A stretch of 64,000 nucleotides of DNA from positions 2,110-66,109 of the forward strand of contig JAPOJV010000001.1 in assembly GCA_029978085.1 (NCBI GenBank). Reading direction: 5' to 3'. The notes below the pieces were generated by a model that was not told the DNA's origin, made no database searches, and saw only the letters and a program-made list of their open reading frames with translations. Source of the DNA: a bacterium (GTDB taxonomy: Bacteria > Planctomycetota > Planctomycetia > Pirellulales > UBA1268). Shown piece after piece: positions 5,149 through 62,173 of this stretch; position 1 is the first letter of the stretch, and each line of letters begins with the position of its first letter. Made by a program: the position numbers and the translations under genes.

Positions 5149-6504
5149 ATGACTCCGTTCAAGCCCGTCCTGCTCGAAGCCGTCGGCGTGCCCGATGGCC
5201 ACTCCATCGCGAGCTACAAGAGCCGCGGCGGCTACGCCCCGCTGGAGAAGGTGCTCGCGGAGAAGCAGCCGGTCGACGTGGTCGAGATGGTGAAGTCGTC
5301 GGGCCTCCGTGGCCGCGGCGGCGCCGGCTTCTCGACCGGCCTCAAGTGGACGTTCCTGCCGAAGGACCATCCCGGGCCGATCTATCTCTGCGTCAACGCC
5401 GACGAGAGCGAGCCGGGCACATTCAACAACCGGATCCTGATGGAGGACGACCCGCATCAGGTGATCGAGGGAATCATCCTCTCCTCGTATGCCACGCGGG
5501 CCTCCACGGCCTACATCTACCTGCGGTACGAGTATCCGCAGAGCTGGCATCGTCTCCAGGCCGCCATCGACGAGGCGTATGCCGCCGGCTACCTCGGGAA
5601 GAACATCCGGGGCACGACCTTCTCGCTCGACATCTACCTGCATCGCGGCGCGGCCGCCTACATCTGCGGCGAGGAGACGGGGCTGATCGAGAGCCTCGAG
5701 GGCAAGCGGGCCTGGCCGCGGATCAAGCCGCCGTTTCCGGCGATTGAGGGGCTGTTCCGTAAGCCGACGGTCGTCAACAACATCGAGACGATGGCCTGCG
5801 TGGCCCAGATCGCCCGCCGCGGCGTCGACTGGTTCAAGTCGATCGGCGTGCCGGCCGACCCTGCCAATCCCCGCGACCCCGGCTCCTACGGCCCGAAGCT
5901 CTACTGCCTCTCGGGCCACGTGGAGAAGCCGGGCTGCTACGAGGCGCCGCTCGGCATCACCGCGCGGCAGCTGATCGACCAGTTCGGTGGCGGCGTCTGG
6001 AAGGGTCGCAAGGCGAAGGCCGTGATCCCCGGCGGCATCTCGATGGGCCTGATGACGGAGAGTGAGCTCGACACGCCGCTCGACTTCGCCGGCCCGGGCA
6101 AGGTGGGCTGTCTCGGCCTCGGCACCGCGGCCGTCGTCGTGATCGACGACGAGACCAGCATCGTCGACTTCCTCCACAACTCCTGCCGGTTCTTCGCCCA
6201 CGAGTCGTGCGGCCAGTGCACGCCCTGCCGCGAGGGCACGAGCTGGAGCCTGCGGATGCTCGAACGGATCAAGGCCGGCCAAGGCCGCCTCCGGGATCTC
6301 GACCTCTTGCTCGAGATCGGCACCACGATGGGCATGATGCCGGGCAGCACGATCTGTGGTCTGGCCGACGGCGCCGCCTGGCCGATCAAGAACGCGATCA
6401 AGAAGTTCCGCGGCGAGTTCGAAGACTACATCAAGCGGACCAATCCCTCGGGCTGGATGGTCACCGACCCCGTGCCCGCCCTGCAGATCGTCGGAGCCCA
6501 CTGA
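5149..6504 (+). CDS. nuoF: NADH-quinone oxidoreductase subunit F
   Basis: ATG 5149 (MTPFKPVLLE). GLRGRGGAGFSTGLKW FMN/NADH site and the ESCGQCTPCREG 4Fe-4S motif. Confidence 0.95.
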   Translation: MTPFKPVLLEAVGVPDGHSIASYKSRGGYAPLEKVLAEKQPVDVVEMVKSSGLRGRGGAGFSTGLKWTFLPKDHPGPIYLCVNADESEPGTFNNRILMEDDPHQVIEGIILSSYATRASTAYIYLRYEYPQSWHRLQAAIDEAYAAGYLGKNIRGTTFSLDIYLHRGAAAYICGEETGLIESLEGKRAWPRIKPPFPAIEGLFRKPTVVNNIETMACVAQIARRGVDWFKSIGVPADPANPRDPGSYGPKLYCLSGHVEKPGCYEAPLGITARQLIDQFGGGVWKGRKAKAVIPGGISMGLMTESELDTPLDFAGPGKVGCLGLGTAAVVVIDDETSIVDFLHNSCRFFAHESCGQCTPCREGTSWSLRMLERIKAGQGRLRDLDLLLEIGTTMGMMPGSTICGLADGAAWPIKNAIKKFRGEFEDYIKRTNPSGWMVTDPVPALQIVGAH

Positions 6505-6505
6505 T

Positions 6506-6587
6506 GAAAAAGGTGCCAGCCACCATTTTCGCGAAAGCCTCCGCCACGCTGAGCCGCCCCATGAAAATGGTGGCTGGCACCTTTTTC
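6506..6587. repeat. Inverted repeat, copy 1: 25-bp perfect arms, 32-bp spacer, filling the nuoF-nuoG gap
   Basis: GAAAAAGGTGCCAGCCACCATTTTC (6506-6530) pairs with GAAAATGGTGGCTGGCACCTTTTTC (6563-6587). The same 16-nt core occurs at 23922 and 54720. Confidence 0.9.
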
Positions 6588-6601
6588 GTCGGAGTTCGTT
6601 C

Positions 6602-8239
6602 ATGCCCGTAGTCATCGTCGATGGACAAGAGATCGAGATCGGAGCCGACGAGCGGCTCAACTGCATCGAGGCTGCGCGGCGGGCGGGCAAGGAGATTCCG
6701 CACTACTGCTGGCATCCGGGCCTCTCCGTCGTGGCCAGCTGCAGGATGTGCCTGATCGAGACGGGCCAGCGCGATGCCGCCACCGGCAAGGTCACGATGG
6801 TGCCGAAGCTCGTGCCCGGCTGCCAGACGCCGGTCAAGGACGGCACGGTGATCGTCACCGAGAGCCAGCTCGTGAAGGACAGCCGCGCCCGGGTCGAAGA
6901 GGCGCTCCTCATCGATCATCCGATCGACTGTCCGATCTGCGACAAGGCGGGCGAGTGCCTGCTCCAGGACTACCACTTCGAGCACGGCCAGGCCGAGCGG
7001 CGGGCCGATCTCCATCCATTCACGAGCCGCAAGCGGGACGTCGGCCCCACGGTCACGCTGTTCGTCGATCGCTGCATCATGTGCACCCGGTGCGTGCGGT
7101 TCACCCGCGAGGTGTCAGGCACGTCGGAGTTGATGGTCACGTCCCGTGGCGCAAAGGAAGAAATCGACGTCTTCCCCGGGTTCCCGCTCGACAACAAGCT
7201 CGCCGGCAACGTGGTCGATCTCTGCCCGGTCGGTGCGCTCGGCGACAAGGACTTCCTCTATCAGCAGCGGGTCTGGTTCCTGAAGCGGGAGGCGAACGTC
7301 TGCGGCGGCTGCTCGGCAGGCTGCTCGATCCACACCGAACACAACCAAGACACGGTCTACCGGCTCAAGCCCCGCGAGAACCCGCACGTCAACACCTGGT
7401 GGATGTGCGACGACGGCCGCTACGGCTGGCACCACCTCCACGATCAGTCGCGGGTGCTCGCCGCCGGCCGGCGGCGCGATCTCCGTGGCAACGGCCACGG
7501 CACGCCGGGCGATGCCTTCGAGACGATCGAGTGGGCCGACGTCGTGACGCGGCTCCGCGATGACCTCAAGGCCGCGGGCCGTCTCGCAGTGGCCGTCTCG
7601 CCGATGCTCACGGTCGAAGAGGCCTGGATGCTCTGTGCGATCGCCCGCTCGATCGATCCGGAAGCGTTCCTGTCCCTCGGCCACGTGCCCGTGGTCGGGG
7701 CCGATGAAACCTTCCCCGGCGGCTTCACGATCCGCGCCGAGAAGTGCCCCAACCGCAAGGGTGTCGAGGAAGTGCTCGCCCTCTACGGCGCCGGTGGCCG
7801 CTCGTGGGATGACCTCGTGGCCCATGTCGCCGCCGGCAAGGCCGACGCCGCCTGGGTGACCGGCGGCTATCCGACGCCCTGGATCGACGACGCGACCGCT
7901 GCATCCTTCGCCGATCTCACGTGCCTCGTGGTGCAGGACCTCTTCGAGTCGCCGCTCATGAAGCTCGCCACCTGGCGGCTGCCGGCAGCGGGCTTCGCGG
8001 AGCGGGCCGGCACCTGGGTGAACGTGGCCCACCATGCCCAGAGCTTCGGCCAGGCGATCAAGCCGCCGGCCGGCGTCTGGCCCGAAGGGCGGCTGTTCTG
8101 GAACATGCTCGGCCGCCGCGGCCTCTATGACCCCGTCGGCGTGCGGCAGCAGATCGCCGGGTCGGCCGCCCCCTTCGCCGCGCTCGCCGGCGACGTGCCG
8201 GCCACCGGTGTGGACCTTCGCGTGAGGCAGCTCGCATGA
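6602..8239 (+). CDS. nuoG: NADH-quinone oxidoreductase subunit G (short form, 545 aa)
   Basis: ORF 6356..8239 trimmed to ATG 6602 (MPVVIVDGQEIEI), with GGAG 10 nt upstream. Fe-S motifs CRMCLIE, HPIDCPICDKAGECLLQD and CIMCTRCVRF. Confidence 0.92.
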   Translation: MPVVIVDGQEIEIGADERLNCIEAARRAGKEIPHYCWHPGLSVVASCRMCLIETGQRDAATGKVTMVPKLVPGCQTPVKDGTVIVTESQLVKDSRARVEEALLIDHPIDCPICDKAGECLLQDYHFEHGQAERRADLHPFTSRKRDVGPTVTLFVDRCIMCTRCVRFTREVSGTSELMVTSRGAKEEIDVFPGFPLDNKLAGNVVDLCPVGALGDKDFLYQQRVWFLKREANVCGGCSAGCSIHTEHNQDTVYRLKPRENPHVNTWWMCDDGRYGWHHLHDQSRVLAAGRRRDLRGNGHGTPGDAFETIEWADVVTRLRDDLKAAGRLAVAVSPMLTVEEAWMLCAIARSIDPEAFLSLGHVPVVGADETFPGGFTIRAEKCPNRKGVEEVLALYGAGGRSWDDLVAHVAAGKADAAWVTGGYPTPWIDDATAASFADLTCLVVQDLFESPLMKLATWRLPAAGFAERAGTWVNVAHHAQSFGQAIKPPAGVWPEGRLFWNMLGRRGLYDPVGVRQQIAGSAAPFAALAGDVPATGVDLRVRQLA

Positions 8240-23903: not shown

Positions 23904-23921
23904 GACTTGCGACTCCTGTGT

Positions 23922-24003
23922 GAAAAAGGTGCCAGCCACCTTTTGTCTGGAACGGGTCCGTGTCACCTGCGGCGACAGGCAAAAGGTGGCTGGCACCTTT
24001 TTC
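23922..24003. repeat. Inverted repeat, copy 2: 24-bp perfect arms, 34-bp spacer
   Basis: GAAAAAGGTGCCAGCCACCTTTTG (23922-23945) pairs with CAAAAGGTGGCTGGCACCTTTTTC (23980-24003). It lies between the MFS gene stop and the YHS-like gene start. Confidence 0.9.
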
Positions 24004-24091
24004 ACGGCCTGGACCTTCGTTAACGACACGATCATAGGCCCGCGGCGGCCGACGTCGCAATCGGCGAATCGGCCACGATTCCGGCCGGTCG

Positions 24092-30930: not shown

Positions 30931-31087
30931 GGTAGCCCGGTCACGGTAGCCCGGTCACGGTAGCCCGGTCACGGTAGCCCGGTCACGCCGTGACCGGAAA
31001 GCCTGTCACGGCGTGACAGGACCACACCGGAAAGTCTGTCACGGCGTGATAAACCCACTTGAGCCCGTCACGGAGTGACGGGCCTAC
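30931..31087. repeat. REP-like cluster 1: four tandem 14-mers GGTAGCCCGGTCAC followed by four palindromes
   Basis: Tandem units at 30931, 30945, 30959 and 30973. Palindromes: CCGGTCACGCCGTGACCGG (30979-30997), CTGTCACGGCGTGACAG (31003-31019), a degenerate copy (31036-31050), and GCCCGTCACGGAGTGACGGGC (31063-31083) followed by CTAC. Confidence 0.9.
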
Positions 31088-32127: not shown

Positions 32128-32252
32128 GTAGGCCCGTTGCTCCGCAACGGGCAAGCAAGTGGCCCGGTCACGCCGTGACCGGAGAAACAGCCCGTCACGG
32201 AGTGACGGGCCTCCGACCGGCATGCCTGTCACGGCGTGACAGGACCACCTAC
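32128..32252. repeat. REP-like cluster 2: four palindromes with GTAG/GTGG heads
   Basis: GTAG followed by GCCCGTTGCTCCGCAACGGGC (32132-32152). GTGG followed by CCGGTCACGCCGTGACCGG (32164-32182). GCCCGTCACGGAGTGACGGGC (32190-32210). CCTGTCACGGCGTGACAGG (32225-32243) followed by CTAC (32249-32252). Confidence 0.9.
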
Positions 32253-52650: not shown

Positions 52651-54026
52651 CAGGCGACCTCCCAGCCCGGGCGATACTGCTTGCGGATGAACCGAGCAGC
52701 CTCCGGGCAGTTCCTGGCCGTGAGCGCCGCCGCATCCCACTCCAGCCGCTTGCCGACACGATAGGCCACCGAGCCGAGCAGCACAGCCTCCGACAATGGG
52801 CCGGAGTAGCCGAAGTGACAGGTCGTCGGCGTACCCTCGCGGCAGGCGGCGATCCATTCGGCGTAGTGGCCGATCGACTTCGGGATCGACTGCGGCGGTG
52901 GCGTGAATCCGGCGAACTTCTCCGCCGGAAAGAGCCGGTAGCCGCCGTAGTCGGCGAACAGCATCCCGTCGCGGCCAACGAACATCACGCCGTTGCCCGG
53001 CACCTTCTGCCCGGCCACCTCCTTCGGGATCCGGTTGCCGTCGTACCACGTGAGCGTCACCGGCGGCTGCTCGCCGCGGGCGGGGAACTCGTACCGCACG
53101 ACCAGGCCCACGGGGCAGGTCTCGGGATCGACCTCGGCCCCCTCGGCCGCACACGCCGTCGGGTATTTCAGGTCAAGCGCCCAGAAGGGCAGGTCCATAT
53201 AGTGGCAGCCCATGTCGCCGAGCGTGCCGTTGCCGAAATCCCAAAACCGCCGCCAGTTCGCCGGGTGATAGGCACCGGCCGCGAACGGCCGAACCGGCGC
53301 CGGGCCGAGCCAGAGATCCCAGTGCAGCGTCGCCGGCGGCTCCTGCCCGCCTTCGGGCCGCTTGCCGCCCCCCCACGACTTGCCGACCCACACATGCACC
53401 TCCTGCACCGGGCCGATCGCCCCGGCACGGATGATCTCCACGACGCGGCGGTAGTTGTCTTCCGCGTGAATCTGCGTGCCCATCTGCGTGACCACGCCCG
53501 CCTTGGCCGCCTCCTCCGCGACGAGCCGTGCCTCGGCCACCGTGTGGGCCAGCGGCTTCTCGCAGTAGACGTGCATCTTCTTGCGGATGGCCCGAATCGA
53601 GGCCGGGGCATGGTGGTGGTCGGCCGTGCTCACCACGACCGCATCGACCGTGCCCACCTCCTTCTCGATCAGCTCACGGTAGTCGACGTAGGTGCGGACG
53701 TCGGGGAACCGGGCCGGCCGCTCCTTCTCGACCTGCTGGTCGTCCTCCTTCACCGTGTATACCTGCGGCTTCGTCTGCCGAGCCATAAACGTGTCGTCGA
53801 CGTCACACATCGCCACGATTTTCGCGCCCGTCACGGCAGCCACTCCGCCGACGTTGTCGGCCGCGCGATTCGCCACGCCGATGCAGGCGATCTGTAGCAG
53901 GTCGTTGGCCCCCAGCGCCGGCCGGGCCGAAAGCCCGCTGAACACGCCCCCCGACAATCCGGCGAGGCCGGCCGAGAGCGTCTTGACCGCCGTACGGCGG
54001 GAAACCGTGACCCGTGATGCCATCAT
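52650..54026 (-). CDS. Gfo/Idh/MocA-family oxidoreductase with a Tat-like signal
   Basis: SRRTAVKTLSAGLAG signal, IACIGVANRAADN, VYCEKPLAH. Confidence 0.88.
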   Translation of the reverse strand: MMASRVTVSRRTAVKTLSAGLAGLSGGVFSGLSARPALGANDLLQIACIGVANRAADNVGGVAAVTGAKIVAMCDVDDTFMARQTKPQVYTVKEDDQQVEKERPARFPDVRTYVDYRELIEKEVGTVDAVVVSTADHHHAPASIRAIRKKMHVYCEKPLAHTVAEARLVAEEAAKAGVVTQMGTQIHAEDNYRRVVEIIRAGAIGPVQEVHVWVGKSWGGGKRPEGGQEPPATLHWDLWLGPAPVRPFAAGAYHPANWRRFWDFGNGTLGDMGCHYMDLPFWALDLKYPTACAAEGAEVDPETCPVGLVVRYEFPARGEQPPVTLTWYDGNRIPKEVAGQKVPGNGVMFVGRDGMLFADYGGYRLFPAEKFAGFTPPPQSIPKSIGHYAEWIAACREGTPTTCHFGYSGPLSEAVLLGSVAYRVGKRLEWDAAALTARNCPEAARFIRKQYRPGWEVA

Positions 54027-54080: not shown

Positions 54081-54782
54081 CTACAGCTCCTTGATGAACA
54101 CGTTGCGGACGTGCATCGGTGCGCCGTGGGTCTGAATCTGGATGGGGCCCGTGGCGGGCAGCGGCTTCCCCTTCTCGAAGAAGTTCGCCAGCGGCGCCGC
54201 ATCGACCACCACCTGCCCATTGAGTTCGACGGTCACCTGCTCGCCGACCATCCTGATCTGCGTCGTGTTCCACTCACCGACGGGTTTGTCGGCCTTCACG
54301 AGCGGCCATTTGCCGGGTGCATCGCCGGGGTTGTTCCACAGGCCACCGGAGCCTTTCTGGCAGCCGTGCTTGAAATCCCGTTCACACTGTGGATCCCAGA
54401 TCTGCACCTGCGGATTTCCGCGGAGGTAGATGCCGCTGTCAGCGCAAGGCTTCGGAAGCATCCACTCGACGAGCAGTTCGAAGTCACCGTAGTCGCGATC
54501 GGTCGTGAGAAACACGCCGTGGCCGTCGCTCACGATCACGCCGTCCTGCACCGTCCAGTGGGCAGCCAGATCGTCGTTCCATTGTTTCTGCCGAGTCTCG
54601 TGCTCCGCAGGCGTGCCTGCCGCCTCCGCCCGTGGATCCAGATGAGGCCGACCCCGCCAGCCGGCCAGGTCACGGCCGTTGAAGAGCGGCGTAAAGCCAG
54701 CCGGTGGCTCCGCCCCAACAAAGGTGCCAGCCACCAAATCCAGGCAAGCCAGCACAAACACAGCGCAGCGAAGTCTCGTCAT
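54081..54782 (-). CDS. DUF1080 (3-keto-disaccharide hydrolase family) secreted protein
   Basis: ORF 54081..54854 trimmed to ATG 54782 (MTRLRCAVFVLACLDLVAGTFVGA). FTPLFNGRDLAGWRG, WTVQDGVIVSDG and YGDFELLVEW. Confidence 0.85.
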   Translation of the reverse strand: MTRLRCAVFVLACLDLVAGTFVGAEPPAGFTPLFNGRDLAGWRGRPHLDPRAEAAGTPAEHETRQKQWNDDLAAHWTVQDGVIVSDGHGVFLTTDRDYGDFELLVEWMLPKPCADSGIYLRGNPQVQIWDPQCERDFKHGCQKGSGGLWNNPGDAPGKWPLVKADKPVGEWNTTQIRMVGEQVTVELNGQVVVDAAPLANFFEKGKPLPATGPIQIQTHGAPMHVRNVFIKEL

Positions 54783-54819
54783 CAACGCATCTTCTCCAGA
54801 TTTGGTGGCTGGCACCTTT
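54720..54819. repeat. Inverted repeat, copy 3: 21-bp perfect arms, 58-bp spacer, straddling the DUF1080 start codon
   Basis: AAAGGTGCCAGCCACCAAATC (54720-54740, inside the CDS, encoding DLVAGTF on the minus strand) pairs with GATTTGGTGGCTGGCACCTTT (54799-54819, beginning 1 nt after the upstream gene's stop). Confidence 0.9.
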
Positions 54820-55845
54820 TTAAACCGCGACGGGTGCGCCCCCTTGCGCCGCACTTTTGTCGGCGGCGAAGATCACGGCGAACGTGCGGGCGGCCTCGCG
54901 GAAGCTCGTGAGCGGCATCGGCTCGCCCCGGTCGAGGGCGTCGAAGAACGCCTGGAACTGGGCCTGATACGGGTGGTCGCTCACGTCGCCCGAGTCGAGC
55001 ATCTTCATCGAGAGCCGGCTCCAGTGCCCCTTATCGGCCTTGAGCTTCATCGAATGGAAGCGGTCGTCGAGCAGGCTCCCCTCGCTGCCGACCAGGTGCG
55101 TGTGGAAGTAGTAGGGCTGCAGGCAGTCGACGATCGCGGCCGTCTTGCCTACGGCGCCGTTCTTGAACCGCAGGATCGTGACGCTCGACGTGTCGTATTC
55201 GTACGGCGTGAAAAACTCGCTCGCCGACTTGGTGCTGATGCTCGACACGCTCTCCACCTCATCTCCCATGAGCATGAGCAGCGCATCGAGCGCGTGGCAG
55301 CCAGCCGTGAGCAGGGCGCTGCCCCCCTCCTTCTTGCCGGTGTTCCACCGGTATTGGCCATACCAGGGGCCGATCCCGTGGTAGTAGTCGACCTCGCCGT
55401 AGTGCAGCCGGCCGAGCAGCCCCTCGTCGAGCAGCGCCTTCGTCACCTGGAACTGGTTGGAGAACCGACACTCGAAGCAGACGCAGCCCTGCACGCCGTT
55501 GGCCTCGGCCGCCGCGAGGATGTCGCTGACTTCCTCCGGCGAGTTGGCCATCGGCTTCTCGAGGATCACGTGCTTCTTCGCCTTCGCCGCCGCGACAGCC
55601 TGCTCACGGTGCAGGCTCGGCAGGCCCGTGATGTCGACGACGTCGATCCCGGGATCGGCCAGCATGTCGTCGAGCCGCTGATACACACGGATCGGGCAGC
55701 CGTGCTTCGCGGAGAGCTCCGCCGCATCGAGCGGCCGCGACGAGCAGACGGCCACGACGCGGCCCTGCCGCGTGGCGTTGATGGCGGCCAGGTGGGCCGT
55801 CGCCGCCCAGCCGTAGCCCACGATGCCGACGTTCACGTTCTTCAT
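54820..55845 (-). CDS. Gfo/Idh/MocA-family oxidoreductase (no signal peptide)
   Basis: VGIVGYGWAATAH Rossmann motif, VILEKPMA. ATGA overlap with the upstream gene. Confidence 0.88.
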   Translation of the reverse strand: MKNVNVGIVGYGWAATAHLAAINATRQGRVVAVCSSRPLDAAELSAKHGCPIRVYQRLDDMLADPGIDVVDITGLPSLHREQAVAAAKAKKHVILEKPMANSPEEVSDILAAAEANGVQGCVCFECRFSNQFQVTKALLDEGLLGRLHYGEVDYYHGIGPWYGQYRWNTGKKEGGSALLTAGCHALDALLMLMGDEVESVSSISTKSASEFFTPYEYDTSSVTILRFKNGAVGKTAAIVDCLQPYYFHTHLVGSEGSLLDDRFHSMKLKADKGHWSRLSMKMLDSGDVSDHPYQAQFQAFFDALDRGEPMPLTSFREAARTFAVIFAADKSAAQGGAPVAV

Positions 55846-61318: not shown

Positions 61319-61978
61319 ATGCACATCACTCCTGGCGCCCTCGCCGTCGGCCTCGTCATCATCTCCAGTTGCCTCGGCACGGCCCGAGCTGAGGACGCGT
61401 CACCAGCTCCCGCGGGATTCACGTCGCTCTTCACCGGCACCGATCTGACCGGCTGGGCCGGGGCGGTCGACAACTACGAGGTCCGCGACGGCGCGATCGT
61501 CTGCAAGCCCGGCCAGGGGGGCACGCTCCACACGAAAGAGTCATACGGCGACTTCATCGTGCGGTTCGAGTTCCTCCTGCCACCCGGCGGCAACAACGGC
61601 CTGGCGATCCGCTATCCGGGGAGCGGCGATCCGGCCTACACGGGGATGTGTGAGCTGCAGGTGCTCGACAGCGAGCATCCCAAGTATGCGAAGCTCGATC
61701 CCCGGCAGTATCACGGCTCCGCCTACGGCATGGCCGCCGCCCGCCGCGGCCACCTCCGGCCCACCGGCGAGTGGAACGAACAGCAGGTGACGGTGCAGGG
61801 CTCGCGGATCACGGTCGAGTTGAATGGCACGACGATCCTCGATGCCGACCTGAAAGACGTGACCGAGTTTCTCGACGGCAAAGCCCACCCCGGCAAGGAC
61901 TTGAAGGAGGGCTTCTTCGGGTTCGCCGGCCACGGCGACTCGGTCATGTTCCGCCGCATCGCGATCAAGCGACTGTAG
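61319..61978 (+). CDS. DUF1080 (3-keto-disaccharide hydrolase family) secreted protein
   Basis: Signal peptide, FTSLFTGTDLTGWAG, YEVRDGAIVC, YGDFIVRFEFLLPPGGNNGLAIR. Confidence 0.85.
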   Translation: MHITPGALAVGLVIISSCLGTARAEDASPAPAGFTSLFTGTDLTGWAGAVDNYEVRDGAIVCKPGQGGTLHTKESYGDFIVRFEFLLPPGGNNGLAIRYPGSGDPAYTGMCELQVLDSEHPKYAKLDPRQYHGSAYGMAAARRGHLRPTGEWNEQQVTVQGSRITVELNGTTILDADLKDVTEFLDGKAHPGKDLKEGFFGFAGHGDSVMFRRIAIKRL

Positions 61979-62003: not shown

Positions 62004-62050
62004 GTAGGCCCGTTGCTCCGTGACGGGCTGCCCGTTGCGGAGCAACGGGC
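62004..62050. repeat. REP-like cluster 8
   Basis: GTAG (62004-62007) followed by GCCCGTTGCTCCGTGACGGGC, a hybrid of the two stem types, and then GCCCGTTGCGGAGCAACGGGC (62030-62050). Confidence 0.85.
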
Positions 62051-62173
62051 CTCCAGTGGGCTGGCGTTCAGCCCCGTGGCGTTCGCCAGACAGGATGGCG
62101 AATGTCTTCGATCTCGCGATCAAGCGGATCGAACGAGATGCAGGAGCCGACACGCCGACGTCCCGAGCGGCGG

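Follow-up and report, generated by a model that had tools for sequence, protein, structure and literature searches.

A probable REPIN-type element exapted at the oxidoreductase–DUF1080 junction of a Pirellulales genome

Analysis of a 64,000-nucleotide stretch of a Pirellulales genome (contig JAPOJV010000001.1; the whole stretch is called the window, and positions without a handle refer to it) indicated that the long inverted repeat between a GFO_IDH_MocA oxidoreductase gene and a DUF1080 gene is very probably a REPIN-type element exapted at this junction. REPIN denotes a doublet of repetitive extragenic palindromic (REP) sequences forming a hairpin; here two inverted REP or terminal inverted repeat (TIR) units are present, associated with transposases of the REP-associated tyrosine transposase (RAYT) class. 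The reading is based on the doublets shared throughout a repeat family and on the inverted units that flank a Y1/HUH transposase gene in three genomes.

The following course of events would best explain the junction. A RAYT-class (IS200/IS605-like Y1 HUH) transposase would have mobilised the element, which would have entered the junction of the two genes before several of the sampled lineages split. The left unit, lying directly after the oxidoreductase stop codon, would supply GGAG as a ribosome-binding motif, the DUF1080 open reading frame (ORF) would start within the element at TTG 54785 or ATG 54782, and the right unit would be translated as the hydrophobic core and c-region of a signal peptide. 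In the mRNA the stem may form and partly occlude the Shine-Dalgarno (SD) sequence, and DUF1080 initiation would then depend on ribosomes finishing the upstream ORF, that is, on translational coupling.

The repeat family and its transposase

A repeat search placed the two arms at 54720-54740 and 54799-54819; each is 21 nt long, the two are 100% complementary and the spacer between them is 58 nt. On the minus strand the oxidoreductase stop codon TAA occupies 54822-54820, GGAG 54797-54794 and the ATG 54782-54780, and the downstream arm is read in the DUF1080 frame as GAT TTG GTG GCT GGC ACC TTT (D-L-V-A-G-T-F). A recheck of coordinates and translation agreed in all these respects with the original prediction, made from the letters of the window, of a perfect 21-bp inverted repeat with a 58-nt spacer. 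Matches to the arms with at most 3 mismatches numbered 4 in the window and 0 in 100 dinucleotide shuffles of it, and chance similarity of the arms was thereby ruled out. The element was identical in independent assemblies of the same species.

The 13-nt core of the arms, GGTGCCAGCCACC, builds three inverted doublets in the window, 6 units in all against 0.0-0.5 expected by chance. The prediction is amended in two ways, since the repeat is not unique (there are two further hairpins) and the conserved start is a TTG one codon upstream of the ATG. An exact 16-mer scan, with one genome per species, gave at least 118 genomic stretches. Among the matches listed, about half were from Planctomycetota metagenome-assembled genomes (MAGs; Pirellulales, Planctomycetaceae, Isosphaerales), mostly as +/- pairs 45-95 nt apart; 45 of the +/- pairs listed had 15-90 nt between the cores, and 40 or more inverted doublets lay in Planctomycetota MAGs other than ours. 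Single 16-mer matches in unrelated phyla are consistent with chance, about 280 being expected in 596 Gb by our own estimate. Five MAGs labelled 'Candidatus Kuenenia' (L013, L041, L075, L094 and L109) have 66-69% G+C at these loci; the genus Candidatus Kuenenia has a G+C content of about 41%. These labels are probably binning or taxonomy errors and were not used as evidence for Brocadiales. A full-text literature search with the 13-mer core in either orientation returned no paper.

Alignment of the 45 doublets revealed a unit of about 33 nt and the consensus G-A(4-5)-GGTGCCAGCCACC-AAATCTGG(A/G)(G/C)AAGAT ... CTTGCCCAGATTT-GGTGGCTGGCACC-T(4-5)-C. Conservation across genomes runs inward of the arms (AAATCTGGAGAAGAT ... 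CTTGCCCAGATTT), and the window copy fits the consensus on the sense strand of the gene. Because the consensus extends past the arms in this manner, GGAG and the codons (A)-C-L-D-L-V-A-G-T-F-V are, as read from the alignment, element sequence, and the TTG start probably is as well; the element-derived part is larger than the original prediction assumed. The inner extensions vary between copies and are complementary within each copy (AAATC/GATTT, ATTTTC/GAAAAT, TTTTG/CAAAA). Solo units also occur, and both these and doublets with differing interiors sit in unrelated gene contexts; the interior type of the 23920-24005 doublet, for example, recurs beside other genes in L042, L084, L025 and L125. 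About 18 of the 45 doublets start -4 to +8 nt from the stop codon of a high-GC3 ORF (by a crude ORF model), and two of the three doublets of the window adjoin a stop codon. Target-site duplication was absent from 40 of 42 doublets, in which no flanking direct repeat of 2 nt or more was found.

In three genomes (L026, L067 and L122) an ORF of 232-244 aa lies between two inverted units that are 785-790 nt apart. Comparison of this ORF with PF01797 (Y1_Tnp) gave 44 bits (cut-off 23), its best solved relative was the E. coli TnpA-REP (PDB 4ER8, E = 7.5e-7), and it carries the HWH (HUH) motif together with the Tyr of RYVERNP. A RAYT homologue with 40% identity was found in L082 (2444-3202; Vicinamibacterales, Acidobacteriota) between doublets that contain the 13-nt core. 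The acidobacterial arrangement is the opposite one, GGTGGCTGGCACC, 11 nt, GGTGCCAGCCACC, in L082 and also in L024, L045, L064, L086 and others. The acidobacterial copies thus appear to link the repeat core with the transposase clade across phyla.

The Planctomycetaceae MAG L026 (185-4821) carries six units within 5 kb around its RAYT gene. In the same MAG a sigma-70-like TTGACG-17 nt-TATACA stands directly before the RAYT start, downstream of the RAYT-proximal units.

History and translation of the junction copy

The insertion was found at the same junction in L128, L007, L008 and L109, with a core-to-core distance of 68 nt throughout. The DUF1080 protein of L128 is 89% identical to that of the window and both arms are perfect; that of L007 is 91% identical and the right arm has 3 uncompensated mismatches; that of L008 is 85% identical and both arms are decayed; that of L109, a three-domain protein, is 76% identical and the arms are intact. 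The left unit, whose A-run overlaps the final two bases of the oxidoreductase stop codon, is near-invariant among the window, L128, L007 and L109. The two units together differ from those of the window at 0 of 63 positions in L128 and at 6 of 63 in L109, while the interior differs from that of L109 at about 24 of 40. The low divergence of the units relative to the interior indicates that the units were constrained or homogenised in those lineages, and that the interior evolves as an ordinary leader peptide.

An empty site was identified in L208, which is syntenic (NagB/LmbE, oxidoreductase, DUF1080; 80% identical) and lacks the element. Its junction consists of the stop codon, an unrelated 61-nt spacer, the ATG and the leader MPLLFRLSSCLLFLVGSAASAA before EPPAGF. 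In the window the distance from the oxidoreductase stop to the first mature codon is 109 nt, which corresponds to the 100-nt element and 9 nt (GTTGGGGCG), and outside the element no trace of an older spacer or leader is visible. The repeat family, the RAYT genes flanked by units in three genomes, the empty site of L208 and the filling of the junction by the 100-nt element all support the earlier proposal that a mobile element created or replaced the N-terminus of the DUF1080 protein.

Gene callers in several assemblies placed the start of the 233-aa product at ATG 54782. Alignment of the orthologues revealed that the position of TTG 54785 is common to all while the ATG occurs in the window species only, and that GGAGAAGAT and the TTG 8 nt downstream of GGAG are invariant in all five orthologues, L008 included despite its arm decay. 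The frame is open and its length constant through the element in the five lineages, even though the interior is about 60% divergent. Alignment of 28 orthologues indicated that conservation starts at EPPAGF and that all have a hydrophobic leader ending in small-x-small. By inspection, the leader MTRLR / CAVFVLACLDLVAGTF / V-G-A before EPPAGF looks Sec-like, with a basic n-region, an h-region and small residues at -3/-1. Between the right arm and the mature domain, in-frame start codons are found only inside the arm itself (TTG 54737 and GTG 54734). The DUF1080 paralogue at 61319 has an unrelated signal peptide, as had been pointed out before.

Two kinds of rearrangement bear on the start. An 18-nt deletion in L128 (1455-1500) and L007 (2170-2213) removes the oxidoreductase stop codon, so that the translated left arm lengthens the oxidoreductase at its C-terminus (...GKRCQPPNLEKMR* and ...KIC, respectively). 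The TGA at which the ORF now stops overlaps the TTG start of DUF1080 (cgTTGAc); in L128 both arms are then coding and their complementarity is still perfect. L124 (6830-6905, minus strand) has lost the DUF1080 gene together with the right arm by an in-frame deletion, and the left half of the element, with the TTG and five codons, is fused to the twin-arginine translocation (Tat) leader of the next gene (MTSGPISRRTAVKTL...), a Tat-signal GFO oxidoreductase that in the window starts at 54026. The in-frame starts between the oxidoreductase stop and the twin-arginine motif of L124 are the equivalent of TTG 54785 and a GTG of the left arm, both within the element. Because all 28 aligned orthologues have a leader, the frame and length are kept, the initiation region is invariant, and the L128/L007 overlap and the L124 fusion both involve the TTG, translation that begins within the element and continues across the right unit appears well supported. 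The leader would then work in export.

The upstream GTG 54854 (MRRKGAHPSRFKK...), from which both arms would be translated, was also considered as a start and judged less likely than TTG/ATG, since the internal start yields a canonical leader and the upstream ORF of L128 and L007 ends exactly on the TTG.

The original prediction had further held that retention of LVAGTF in orthologues without the upstream arm would point to chance similarity. This is not a valid discriminator: L008 keeps AVAGTC beside a decayed upstream arm, which on the alignment is decay of a shared insertion and not chance. The coordinates of all features are given in Table 1.

Table 1. Positions of the junction element, its parts, the adjoining genes and the two further doublets in the window
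Feature	Position	Strand	Remarks
Left REP unit AAAAAGGTGCCAGCCACCAAATCTGGAGAAGAT	54789..54821	-	Holds the upstream arm 54799-54819 and the 13-nt core GGTGCCAGCCACC at 54804-54816
GGAG, Shine-Dalgarno-like	54794..54797	-	8 nt upstream of TTG 54785; within the family-conserved inner segment TCTGGAGAAG
Start codons TTG 54785-54783 and ATG 54782-54780	54780..54785	-	Both inside the element
Doublet interior, about 40 nt	54749..54788	-	Encodes signal-peptide n-region and early h-region (L-M-T-R-L-R-C-A-V-F-V-L)
Right REP unit CTTGCCTGGATTTGGTGGCTGGCACCTTTGTT	54717..54748	-	Holds the downstream arm 54720-54740; putatively translated as (A)-C-L-D-L-V-A-G-T-F-V
Signal-peptide coding region (L)MTRLRCAVFVLACLDLVAGTFVGA	54711..54785	-	Predicted cleavage after V-G-A, before EPPAGF
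DUF1080 (PF06439) / 3-keto-disaccharide hydrolase gene	54081..54782	-	233 aa as called
GFO_IDH_MocA oxidoreductase gene, upstream	54820..55845	-	341 aa; stop codon adjoins the element
Second doublet, inner variant ATTTTC/GAAAAT	6503..6590		Between the nuoF-like stop (6504) and the nuoG-like ATG (6602)
Third doublet, inner variant TTTTG/CAAAA, interior ccgtgtcacctgcggcgac	23920..24005		Upstream of a minus-strand gene; ends 16 nt before its ATG 23904

The doublet at the nuoF-nuoG junction is also found in L078 (6573-6642) and L085 (about 6178). Since it occupies one junction in several MAGs, long orthologous retention is not peculiar to the DUF1080 copy. In L009 (60-240) the orthologue P0004, 82% identical, has a different upstream context; its leader (..AVFCLLWGVVAGA DEPP, DNA gtcgtcgctggcgcc) and the upstream aaaacttctggag faintly resemble a decayed element, the similarity not being significant.

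Alternative explanations

On a first alternative, selection would now maintain the long stem, irrespective of where it came from, for the control that its folded mRNA exerts on DUF1080 translation; it might couple that translation to the oxidoreductase ORF, influence processing or stability, or act as an attenuator between cistrons. For 54700-54840 (minus strand) a very stable RNA fold is predicted (-69.2 kcal/mol, z = -4.5). Of the GGAG bases, the first, second and last are paired in more than 97% of the predicted ensemble, so that these SD G residues are unpaired in less than 3% of it, and the ATG lies in a small loop; the initiation region has a mean unpaired probability of 0.30, against 0.47 once the upstream arm is removed. 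The arms are far better conserved than the interior in the window, L128 and L109, and in every orthologue the stop codon of the upstream ORF adjoins the structure or overlaps it. REPs situated near stop codons reportedly affect the expression of flanking genes (work attributed to Liang, Rudd and Deutscher, 2015). The influence of REPs near stop codons on flanking-gene expression is an established theme (PMC3733652).

Against such selection, the alignment of the five orthologues revealed pairing in 90% of the cells and a single compensatory change (L008, pair 29-94), and the covariation was not significant, 191 of 500 shuffles scoring as high. The 3 mismatches in one arm of L007 are uncompensated, and in L008 both arms are decayed while GGAGAAGAT with the TTG and the ORF are retained; arm damage beside a kept initiation region means that the stem is dispensable in those lineages. 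Moreover, the arms keep the family sequence beyond what mere pairing would need, which fits protein recognition or recent homogenisation equally well. A co-opted riboregulator is thus conceivable and on balance doubtful. The original prediction had placed the ribosome-binding region inside the stem; the predicted fold bears out the sequestration of the SD G residues, and the covariation result and the uncompensated mismatches of L007 and L008 speak against a regulatory role.

An effect through coupling or occlusion is nevertheless plausible on the model, because the upstream stop adjoins the stem. As in translational coupling systems, the upstream stop lies beside the stem (window, L008 and L109) or overlaps the start as TTGA (L128 and L007), and the predicted fold partly hides the SD; unlike in those systems, the structure would stem from a mobile repeat and not have evolved in place, and the coupling itself is here a deduction. 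At the element, a promoter and terminator scan found nothing, and with a loop of 58 nt and the tail UUUGUU the stem does not have the form of an intrinsic terminator. A5 and T5 flanks are present on other copies of the family, which may have a terminator-like effect. Rfam 15 gave 0 matches in the whole window at the gathering threshold, and a permissive Rfam search of 54650-54900 returned only noise (isrG, 10 bits against 100).

With regard to class, the family was compared with the REP/REPIN-RAYT architecture described for E. coli and Pseudomonas (Nunvar 2010, PMC2817692; Bertels and Rainey 2011, PMC3116915; Di Nocera 2013, PMC3733652). In both, the short units are found mainly in inverted pairs with the capacity to fold into long hairpins, and lie mostly between co-directional or convergent genes near the upstream ORF's 3' end, where their termini can supply or adjoin stop codons; REPs tend to begin close to stop codons (Di Nocera et al., PMC3733652). 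In both, a Y1 HUH transposase gene stands between such units and target-site duplication is absent. The planctomycete family accordingly has copies in numbers well above chance, inverted doublets, a flanked Y1 HUH gene (in the relatives) and extragenic positions near upstream 3' ends. Unlike classical REPs, its unit ends in G-A(4-5) with no GTAG or CGTC tag and is itself a palindrome of only 4-8 bp; exact 16-mers are common to many Planctomycetota MAGs, and an acidobacterial family has the same 13-nt core. The missing tag and the weak self-complementarity place it nearer to the 'TIR repeat/TIRYT' or 'TIRtron/TIRYT' variant (PMC3733652) than to the classical REPs.

A conventional MITE (a miniature transposable element with inverted repeats) derived from an insertion sequence with a DDE transposase, or a conserved protein-binding or uptake-type motif, could likewise account for units that resemble long TIRs more than self-folding REPs and lack the GTAG tag, for a window without a transposase, and, in the case of a functional motif, for copies conserved at orthologous positions (nuoF-nuoG and the DUF1080 locus). 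Target-site duplications such as would accompany the TIRs of a DDE-derived MITE are missing from the 40 of 42 doublets mentioned above, however, and units at a constant distance flank Y1/HUH genes in three genomes, to which the Acidobacteriota homologue is added. Solo units and doublets with varied interiors in unrelated contexts are also against it, and we regard this explanation as quite unlikely.

Several points weigh against the assignment to a RAYT-mobilised REPIN with an exapted, translated arm. The unit pairs with itself only weakly (GGTG/CACC, up to 8 bp in the TTTT variant; GGTG-CCAGC-CACC), and this adds to the missing GTAG/CGTC tag. The ORF flanked by units scored 75.5 bits against NF047646, the NCBIfam model of REP-associated tyrosine transposases, and falls just short of the equivalog cut-off of 80. 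Since tblastn found no RAYT gene in the 64-kb window, the linkage to the transposase rests on the genomes of relatives. A single insertion followed by vertical descent would need either a loss in L208 or a particular branching order; the oxidoreductase of L208 (empty) is 85% identical to that of the window and that of L109 (filled) 84%, and as the two are about equally distant, L208 may have lost the element or may have branched off before the gain. Local alignment of the interior with the leader DNA of L208 and with L009 was marginal (p 0.02-0.3), and the best match of L109 was in a different frame; the interior may therefore be element-borne, or else ancestral host sequence caught between two units. 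The predicted h-region contains an Asp, an uncommon feature among signal peptides. Finally, the start codon, the export and the RNA structure are all read from sequence.

Least probable of all, and very improbable, is that the arm is untranslated, with the true start at TTG 54737 or GTG 54734 within it, the element a 5'-untranslated or intergenic repeat and the called N-terminus an artefact: many REPs that seem to lie in ORF N-termini are probably extragenic with translation starting downstream (Di Nocera et al., PMC3733652), the start clearly follows the right arm in many other family copies (such as nuoG at 6602, genes in L013, L017 and L078) and the arm does hold an in-frame TTG and GTG, yet such a start would give the leaderless MVAGTFVGA-EPPAGF where 28 of 28 aligned orthologues have a leader, and it is opposed by the frame and length kept across five lineages over the divergent interior and by the L128/L007 overlap and the L124 fusion, which indicate TTG 54785.

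Other leader-peptide insertions and significance

ORFs were read through other doublets of the family at four more loci (L115, L090, L018 and L084), with no start codon between the exit arm and the signal-peptide core or lipobox. At L090 (978-1100) the gene, downstream of a DUF1559 pseudopilin-like gene, encodes a lipoprotein, and the whole REPIN lies in frame between the basic n-region MKHKK and the lipobox core. Its homologues, 14 clusters (P0121-P0134) with 73-93% identity, keep the ORF open through the REPIN (MKHKKRCQPPNLGNLPAQPSHAACFWWLAPFLLLAVAGC), some with in-frame decay, while distant homologues have the plain lipoprotein leader MVSRRSLAWTLLMSAALAMTGC. Judging from these reading frames, REPIN insertion into leader-peptide DNA seems to recur.

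A tentative extension, which we consider possible rather than probable, is that these REPINs have repeatedly become part of the 5' ends of genes whose products are exported, each acting as a mobile cassette by which starts and signal-peptide cores are remodelled or even donated, with some copies under a long dual constraint as coding sequence and hairpin. About 5 of the 45 doublets are in its favour, namely those of the DUF1080 locus and L090 and, by ORF reading only, those of L115, L018 and L084. On such a reading the A-run and T-run ends of the element would match, in a genome of 68% G+C, the rare AAG-AAA | TTT-TTG junction of the basic and hydrophobic parts of a signal peptide, and also stop-codon contexts. 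The arms can be read as the hydrophobic peptides LVAGTF, GGWHLF and WWLAPF.

The junction copy may also be compared with the Rickettsia palindromic elements (RPEs) and intragenic REPs, in which a palindromic repeat likewise lies in frame within a protein gene and is translated; RPE-1 insertions at N-termini have been reported to be expressed in vivo, and REPs within genes to be enriched towards the N-terminal ends of ORFs (Di Nocera et al., PMC3733652). The planctomycete element has no sequence relation to the RPEs and, unlike them, adds a motif resembling a ribosome-binding site (RBS) and a start codon, and the part that would be translated is a signal-peptide core here and a surface loop there. 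In addition, no transposase is known for the CGTC and RPE repeats (PMC3733652), whereas the planctomycete family has an identifiable dedicated transposase. The N-terminal excess of REPs and the translation of RPEs are thus already known (PMC3733652); for the connection with signal peptides, and for a repeat that donates RBS and start, we found no earlier description.

Other repeat families are present in the window. A second, unrelated family of the classical GTAG-tagged REP type occupies 30940-31050 and 32159-32248, with three tandem GGTAGCCCGGTCAC units followed by the palindromes GTAGCCCGGTCACGCCGTGACCGG and CCTGTCACGGCGTGACAGGACCAC. A third, a small hairpin family (AGGCCCGTTGCTCCGCAACGGGC), occurs at 32130-32152 and 62006-62052; the DUF1080 paralogue ends at 61978, a short way upstream of the latter copy.

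Taken as a REPIN-type element, what appeared to be a bespoke regulatory hairpin becomes the datable insertion of a selfish or symbiotic repeat. It belongs to an apparently undescribed REP/RAYT family that spans the Planctomycetota and has its core in common with an acidobacterial family. By definition, REPs are extragenic; unlike the classical ones, the DUF1080 copy overlaps a coding region and, as argued above, probably supplies its start. The frame kept in five lineages, the invariant RBS and start, the in-frame fusion and the empty site make unusually good comparative evidence for a translated REP. For annotation, the family is a warning to treat start-codon calls beside its repeats with caution in both directions. 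Nature offers in this locus a clean test case of mobile repeats creating new gene starts and leader peptides, and it bears on whether host use explains the persistence of long-lived REPIN copies.

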